A stretch of 11,363 nt of DNA from a virus (taxonomy: Duplodnaviria > Heunggongvirae > Uroviricota > Caudoviricetes): the IMG/VR virus record IMGVR_UViG_2563366799_000008; one strand, 5' to 3'. A program made the position numbers and the translations under genes. The notes beneath the pieces are model-generated. The model was not told the DNA's origin. It searched no databases and saw nothing but the letters and a program-made list of their open reading frames with translations. Shown one piece after another: positions 1 through 742 of the stretch. Each line of letters begins with the position of its first letter. The first letter of the stretch is position 1.

Positions 1-204
1 AAACGGCTCGATGACTTCCACCATGTTTTGCCATGGCAGAATCTGCTCCATGCGGGACAAGAAAATCTCTTTTCTGGTCTGACGGCGCTTACTGCTGAAT
101 TCACTGTCGGCGAAGGTAAGTTGATGACTCATGATGAACCCTGTTCCATGGCTCCAGATGACAAACATGATCTCATATCAGGGACTTGTTCGCACCTTCC
201 TTAA
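1..204 (+). CDS. 3' end of an ORF entering from upstream of the window; product unknown
   Basis: Frame 1 is open from the window edge to TAA at 202-204 (67 codons). About 49% GC, unlike the AT-rich genes that follow. Overlaps the next ORF by 74 nt in a different frame. Confidence 0.3.
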
Positions 205-742
205 AGGGATTAACATAGCCGATGCTTACAATCCTAAGCAATACATCCCGCCCATACCAAGAGAAAGCATCTATTTTTCATTTAATTATACAAATACCTT
301 GCAGCAGATCTATGCCGTTCCAGACGAGCAAATCATACATATTCACGGCAATTGTAGTTACGATGACGATCTCATACTTGGTCATAGTTTTAGGGTGGAA
401 AAGTCACTAAATCCATATATAGGACCGGATCAAGATACAAGAATAGCAGAGGCATACGACAGAATAAACGAATACTTCGGTAATACATTCAAGCCCAGCG
501 AAGACATAATTAAAGAAGAAAACGTTTTTTTCTCATCGCTTAAAAATGTGGACGAGGTCATCGTTTTAGGCCACTCGCTCGCCGAAGTTGACGGTGAATA
601 CTTTACTGAAATAAATAAAAGCATCCAAGAAAATGCTCGATGGATAGTTGCTTTATATAGAGGTGAGAAAAAATCAGGCAGTTTAGAAGATTATGGTATC
701 AGAGGCTCAAATATTTCTTACGTACAGTATGAAGATATCTGA
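131..742 (+). CDS. AbiH-like abortive-infection family protein (tentative), apparently lacking the family's N-terminal region
   Basis: 203-aa ORF, ATG start, AT-rich. Motifs SFNYTNT, IIHIHGN and VIVLGHSL as I remember them from AbiH-type proteins; this is recalled from memory, not searched. No good SD upstream; start overlaps the upstream frame-1 ORF. Confidence 0.55.

Follow-up and report, generated by a model that had tools for sequence, protein, structure and literature searches.

The AbiH-like open reading frame at the start of the 11,363-nucleotide stretch of viral DNA analysed here (the window) is almost certainly the product of an IS5 copy that transposed into an AbiH gene within an E. 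coli prophage and cut this 302-codon gene in two. In the mechanism we propose, IS5 entered codon 123 of an AbiH-family abortive-infection gene, which is itself cargo of a Qin-type lambdoid prophage integrated beside rspB in E. coli. The event is a simple insertion of the 1195-bp element, with TTAA duplicated on both sides and no loss of DNA, and leaves a 5′ piece of AbiH outside the window and a 3′ piece, encoding the C-terminal 60% of the protein, at window positions 201-742. The features to which we refer below are as follows.

1-200, minus strand: terminal 200 bp of IS5, at the end where the transposase gene ins5A begins (200/200 identity).
1-132, minus strand: codons 1-44 for the IS5 transposase (Ins5A/InsH), read from a start codon at 132-130, by translation.
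28-204, plus strand: frame-1 ORF of 58 aa with a TTG start; IS5 sequence antisense to ins5A.
131-742, plus strand: 203-aa ORF in three parts (codons from IS5, one hybrid codon, then AbiH residues).
185-200, no strand assigned: 16-bp terminal inverted repeat of IS5, CTTGTTCGCACCTTCC (reverse complement GGAAGGTGCGAACAAG), matching the opposite end of the element at 15/16 positions.
201-204, no strand assigned: TTAA, one copy of the 4-bp IS5 target-site duplication, which flanks both IS5 ends in the sister contig L003.
201-742, plus strand: what remains of the AbiH-family gene at its 3′ end (the final two bases of codon 123, then codons 124-302 with the stop).
832-2223, plus strand: intact gene for a 463-aa protein, 89 bp downstream of AbiH; context, and not part of the truncation.

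When window 1-742 is compared by megablast with 5,426 complete E. coli genomes, two unrelated sets of matches meet exactly at 200/201, the point where similarity to the window stops in every genome. Positions 1-200 are matched at all 200 bases by 12,247 sites across 2,420 E. coli genomes, every one annotated as 'IS5-like element IS5 family transposase'. Positions 201-742 are 100% identical to nucleotides 368-909 of a 909-bp gene present in many E. coli genomes, the product of which (WP_001297700.1, 302 aa) is annotated as 'bacteriophage abortive infection AbiH family protein'. Aligned with this intact allele, identity begins at TTAAAGGG and the sequences to the left are unrelated. IS5 has been described as a 1195-bp element with 16-bp inverted repeats that generates a 4-bp duplication (PMC11677980) of the motif 5′-(C/T)TA(A/G)-3′, which includes TTAA (PMC5009759). 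The element here is identified as IS5 by its perfect identity over 200 bases, by the transposase N-terminus on the minus strand and by a full DDE_Tnp_1 ORF in L003; its size and its pair of inverted repeats are likewise seen in L003, the window itself carrying one end only.

The whole insertion is laid out in L003, a 4.93-Mb contig (GCA_040537855.1) that is 99.99% identical to the window over 10,742 window bases in that locus. Here, positions 8505-8875 match exactly the first 371 bp of the intact AbiH gene and end in TTAA; positions 8876-10070 are a 1195-bp IS5 with termini GGAAGGTGCGAATAAG and GGAAGGTGCGAACAAG, of which the former agrees with the window repeat at 15 of 16 positions; and from 10071 onward the 3′ part of AbiH restarts with TTAA. 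Window positions 1-200 correspond to L003 9871-10070, the final 200 bp of the complete element. Since the intact AbiH gene has a single TTAA at the insertion point, the two copies that flank IS5 represent the 4-bp YTAR target duplication of a simple transposition. Nothing is deleted. The two halves of AbiH agree with the intact gene at every base and lie in the same frame. The transposase ORF in L003 (326/338 aa, with DUF772 and DDE_Tnp_1 domains) runs in the direction opposite to AbiH, and the prophage carries on past the 5′ half of the gene with hokD, ydfU, a Q antiterminator and lysis genes.

An exact look-up of the 203-aa chimeric protein finds at least 24 public contigs in which it is a called gene, and support for the junction allele comes from these draft or GenBank assemblies and metagenome contigs. 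The junction is found in none of the 5,426 complete RefSeq E. coli genomes, none of which covers 80% or more of window 1-742, and an exact-match scan of 185,579 GTDB representative genomes did not find the 37-nt IS5/AbiH junction. Seven draft contigs with the same allele (L004-L010) begin 86-147 bp inside IS5. Short-read assemblies usually break at such a point, and a break of this kind may be the reason why the window also starts inside the element. As a separate observation, L003 has one extra T compared with the window and L004 at window position ~5155 (L003 ~15026). This base sits in the gene for a 139-aa HTH regulator (4847-5266) and causes a frameshift; L003 has no call for the regulator gene. 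The extra T may be either an error of sequencing or a genuine mutation.

This arrangement accounts for the open reading frames that drew attention to the region. The first-pass annotation had described the AbiH-like ORF as 5′-truncated and as overlapping an upstream ORF in another frame, and both descriptions hold (131-742 against 28-204), as do the stops that it placed in frame 2, which we find at 80, 122 and 125. Frame 2 is the native AbiH frame, and the last 73 bases of IS5 are open in it and contain ATGs at 131 and 134. A 203-aa 'AbiH' is reported by ORF finders because the IS5 end is open in the AbiH frame with an ATG at 131. Codons 1-23 of this ORF (131-199) are IS5-derived; a hybrid codon, CTT (200-202), encodes Leu in place of the GTT for Val123 of intact AbiH; and AbiH residues 124-302 follow. 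The 203-aa ORF is thus a chance in-frame fusion between the IS5 end and the AbiH remnant. Frame 1 was correctly described as open from the window edge until the TAA at 202-204, a stop that lies within the TTAA target site, and the stretch said to be of host-like GC is IS5 and not host chromosome. GC content is 48.5% in window 1-200 and 37.5% in window 201-742, a step that marks the boundary between IS5 and the cargo gene and not one between host and island. The frame-1 ORF is neither a host gene nor an unrelated complete gene, the latter being an outcome that the earlier annotation had named as one that would refute its reading. This ORF is IS5 DNA that lies antisense to the beginning of the transposase gene. 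It has no Pfam match, and RefSeq annotates its sequence as transposase only. Assignment of this ORF to ins5B or ins5C was considered. The longer plus-strand ORFs of IS5 sit deeper in the element, and the IS5 account gives no coordinates for ins5B or ins5C (PMC11677980); we leave the frame-1 ORF without a gene name and treat it as mechanical.

Comparison with family profiles shows directly how much of AbiH the window copy retains. The 203-aa ORF scores well against Pfam AbiH PF14253 (E 6.3e-37, 128.5 bits, cut-off 30.9), but its match takes in only positions 119-258 of the 260 in the profile; the intact 302-aa allele, at 233 bits, is matched over positions 1-258. The PADLOC AbiH model is matched by the ORF at positions 149-316 of 343 (E 2e-18) and PHROG 19951 at positions 105-288 of 288; NCBIfam has no match for either the AbiH ORF or its 463-aa neighbour. 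Among the best 120 homologues, lengths are nearly all 289-323 aa, with a few shorter proteins that are mostly labelled partial by their source, and there is no family of ~200 aa among them; a full-length alignment to such a family was the other outcome named as one that would refute the earlier reading. It had been claimed that FNYT and HIHG lie mid-protein in AbiH proteins of about 350 aa. The position is right, the motifs starting at residues 150 and 169 of the intact 302-aa protein (and occupying residues 51-54, nt 281-292, and 70-73, nt 338-349, of the 203-aa ORF), and the length should be replaced by the range given above. When 41 full-length relatives are aligned, the columns L16, I19, G20, N21, G22, F23, D24, H27, Y33 and F36 are near-invariant and all fall before residue 123, and the invariant W61, E65 and F119 are also upstream of the break. 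The (I/V)IGNGFD motif (intact residues 18-24) is absent from the window copy and in L003 occurs only in the separated 5′ fragment. The window copy is therefore a fragment of an AbiH member and not a complete one, and with a partial domain and no N-terminal motif it is best annotated as half of a pseudogene rather than as a defence gene. The same alignment bears on the start of the intact gene. As 39 of the 41 relatives begin at or near MRLYIIGNGFD, which is probably the true start, the annotated 302-aa product probably begins 13 codons too early; the annotated start lies outside the window (L001 3634-3672), and residues 1-10 have a pLDDT below 50 in the structural model.

The structure predicted for intact AbiH by AlphaFold2 (pLDDT 89.4, pTM 0.86) suggests what the break would have removed. 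The model has a strand at residues 14-19, the GNGFD loop, a helix at 21-26 and a helical region up to residue 132, with further strands at 146-149, 167-169, 239-245, 269-274 and 294-298. The 39 best Foldseek matches in the PDB all belong to the SIR2 family and include SIR2-HerA/Nezha, DSR2, KomBC, SIRT2 and Sir2Tm, with a best E of 5e-5 and a TM-score of only ~0.36; when the AbiH alignment was run as a profile against PDB sequences, only a chance match came back (E 0.53). Intact AbiH is predicted to have a SIR2-like Rossmann fold, of which residues 1-123, lost from the remnant, would comprise the first beta-strand, the glycine-rich IIGNGFD loop and most of the helical insert. A 2026 review likewise considers AbiH to be sirtuin-like and possibly NAD+-depleting, and lists its mechanism as unknown (PMC13064643); an NAD+-depleting activity is a proposal from that literature alone.

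The remnant in the window is very probably dead because it is without the near-invariant IIGNGFD strand-loop of the predicted SIR2-like fold. Going by the model, neither half of AbiH would be expected to fold into an active enzyme, and the split gene presumably no longer gives phage defence. There is no sigma-70-like promoter on the plus strand of window 1-200, and a promoter and terminator scan of window 1-2500 found fewer promoter-like sites than in shuffled sequence; these results therefore give no positive sign of expression of the remnant. Transcripts that begin at the AbiH promoter could nevertheless extend across IS5 along its ins5CB strand and give some product of the chimeric ORF.

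Three explanations had been offered for the short ORF at the outset, namely a remnant truncated at the island junction, a frameshifted pseudogene and a genuinely short variant, and none of them survives comparison with the intact allele and L003. A true AbiH variant of ~200 aa beginning at ATG 131 would fit with an open frame, an ATG start, a score well above the Pfam cut-off and the reports of gene callers, yet we regard it as extremely improbable given that the first 23 codons are IS5 DNA, that the Pfam, PADLOC and PHROG matches all begin mid-profile, and that the homologues include no family of this length and share a conserved N-terminal motif that is missing here. The overlap of two ORFs in different frames at 131-204 might instead point to a frameshift, with the frame-1 ORF as the displaced N-terminal part of AbiH. 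The chance of this is vanishingly small: the frame-1 ORF is IS5 sequence with no similarity to AbiH or to any other Pfam family, and L003 has the real N-terminal part of AbiH 1195 bp further upstream, where it matches the intact gene exactly and shares the frame of the remnant.

It is also very unlikely that the remnant was left by a deletion, either at the edge of an island or prophage or mediated by IS5 itself. The GC step at position 200 could be taken to favour such an event, and AbiH stubs bounded by IS3 with an adjacent deletion are known in other E. coli lineages, but L003 keeps both halves of the gene, including the 371 bp of the 5′ part intact across IS5, together with the target duplication, hokD, ydfU, the Q antiterminator and the lysis genes, so that the prophage continues well beyond the supposed edge. 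Misjoining of the IS5 repeat to AbiH during assembly has in its favour that seven draft contigs start just inside IS5, as at a collapsed repeat, and that no complete RefSeq genome contains the junction. Against this, at least 24 contigs in NCBI, ENA and Logan assemblies share the same junction, and one of 4.93 Mb runs through the entire IS5 with a perfect 4-bp duplication, which mis-assembly would not produce; we give such an artefact hardly any credence. Transposition of IS5 into an intact AbiH gene remains by far our preferred reading.

The surroundings of the gene are those of a Qin-type lambdoid prophage adjoining rspB. Over positions 201-11363 the window differs by 5 mismatches from E. 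coli G3/10, where AbiH is intact within an 11.2-kb prophage segment. From the integrase end, the prophage encodes the integrase, an excisionase, an 823-aa exonuclease, ydfD, dicB, ydfA and two HTH regulators, followed by YdaT, a replication-organiser-like gene, DUF977 and then the low-GC pair formed by AbiH and the 463-aa gene, beyond which lie hokD, ydfU, the Q antiterminator, cspF/cspB and the lysis genes. The window starts inside IS5 and its end (11363) is the last base of the integrase stop codon, beside rspB in G3/10; these limits look like a product of assembly or annotation and not like biological boundaries.

In E. coli as a whole the AbiH gene is uncommon and often degraded. It occurs in 116 of the 5,426 complete genomes, always on the chromosome and in single copy, and at least 80% of the gene is matched in only 65 of these 116 carriers, of which at least one (H80) is split by IS1; another carrier (H86) is likewise split by IS1. 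In some carriers AbiH ends at nucleotide 566 against an IS3, with the DNA up to the exonuclease gene lost, and the remaining carriers have AbiH stubs of 230, 225 or 102 bp. The IS5 allele is therefore one among several independent hits on AbiH by insertion sequences (IS1, IS3 and IS5). Degraded alleles can be inspected at L023 2501-3877 and L024 2501-3100 and in matches H80 and H86-H103.

The 463-aa gene that follows the remnant belongs to a family with the following loci.

Window 832-2223, plus strand.
L015 6023-7414.
L017 4001-5395.
L028 3501-4958.
L020 4001-5458.
L029 3501-4820.

The protein matches nothing in Pfam, PADLOC, NCBIfam or PHROGs, and its structural model (pLDDT 80.7) has no significant neighbour in the PDB. 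Its 48 homologue clusters, from Enterobacterales and Aeromonas, are all annotated 'hypothetical'. We consider it a candidate for an uncharacterised defence or accessory gene. The AbiH and 463-aa pair recurs with the same 89-bp spacing and 96% identity in a Klebsiella prophage, in a different slot; in Pantoea, homologues of the 463-aa gene lie 19-26 bp after Abi_2 genes that match PADLOC PD-T4-5; and in Dickeya one lies 18 bp after a DUF3644 gene that matches PADLOC PDC-S19. It is conceivable, though on balance we doubt it, that AbiH and its 463-aa neighbour together make up a two-gene module, the 463-aa protein being a swappable partner of different single-gene Abi effectors. That the gene is an independent piece of cargo is equally allowed, because homologues are also found without such a partner in Aeromonas, in Yersinia and within a P2-like prophage, settings that include prophage cargo slots and apparent defence-gene neighbourhoods. 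The Aeromonas homologue adjoins an AAA_15/AAA_21 ATPase gene and a UvrD-helicase gene, which we read as Gabija-like. Relatives of AbiH in Providencia and Serratia have no 463-aa neighbour gene. The Providencia AbiH (86% identity; L011-L013 1-4600) lies in an integrase-bearing island beside smpB that also contains an AAA_15/AAA_21 ATPase gene with a 285-aa partner and an Mrr_cat-nSTAND3 gene, and from its gene content we read this as a defence island.

Both IS5 and AbiH are known and routinely annotated, and the event described here is a textbook IS5 insertion, already known in kind. Copies of IS5 in E. coli K-12 interrupt nmpC and lomR (PMC11677980), and the present case resembles these both in its element (1195 bp, 16-bp inverted repeats, 4-bp YTAR duplication) and in being a simple insertion into prophage-borne coding sequence. 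It differs in the target gene, an AbiH site that carries IS5 in none of the 5,426 complete E. coli genomes. AbiH itself was reportedly described in Lactococcus lactis by Prevots et al. in 1996. The intact E. coli allele resembles the lactococcal protein in matching the whole PF14253 profile and in being the cargo of a mobile element, but the window copy corresponds to the C-terminal 60% only and the E. coli family is distant (94.9 bits against PADLOC AbiH), and the abortive-infection role of enterobacterial AbiH is putative. The best structural neighbours of the intact AbiH model are SIR2-HerA/Nezha, DSR2 and KomBC, and NAD+ depletion has been proposed in the literature. The likeness of AbiH to these SIR2 antiphage NADases is at the level of the predicted fold only (TM ~0.36, 11-13% identity), and AbiH has no HerA or sensor partners. 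Transposition of insertion sequences is reported to inactivate CRISPR-Cas (PMC10359306), and AbiH, struck by IS5, IS1 and IS3, offers a parallel in which a mobile element probably disables an immune gene, the target here being a different defence system.

For annotation, the value of the finding is that defence-system finders would count the 203-aa chimera as AbiH. For the biology of E. coli, it is one more case of a known pattern, the recurrent erosion by insertion sequences of defence genes that cryptic prophages carry. The IS5-split AbiH raises no new biological question, and the 463-aa gene is the sole part of the region that might repay more work. If the two-gene module were real, the IS5 allele would be a natural knockout of the AbiH half only, and the 463-aa gene might still be active in defence.
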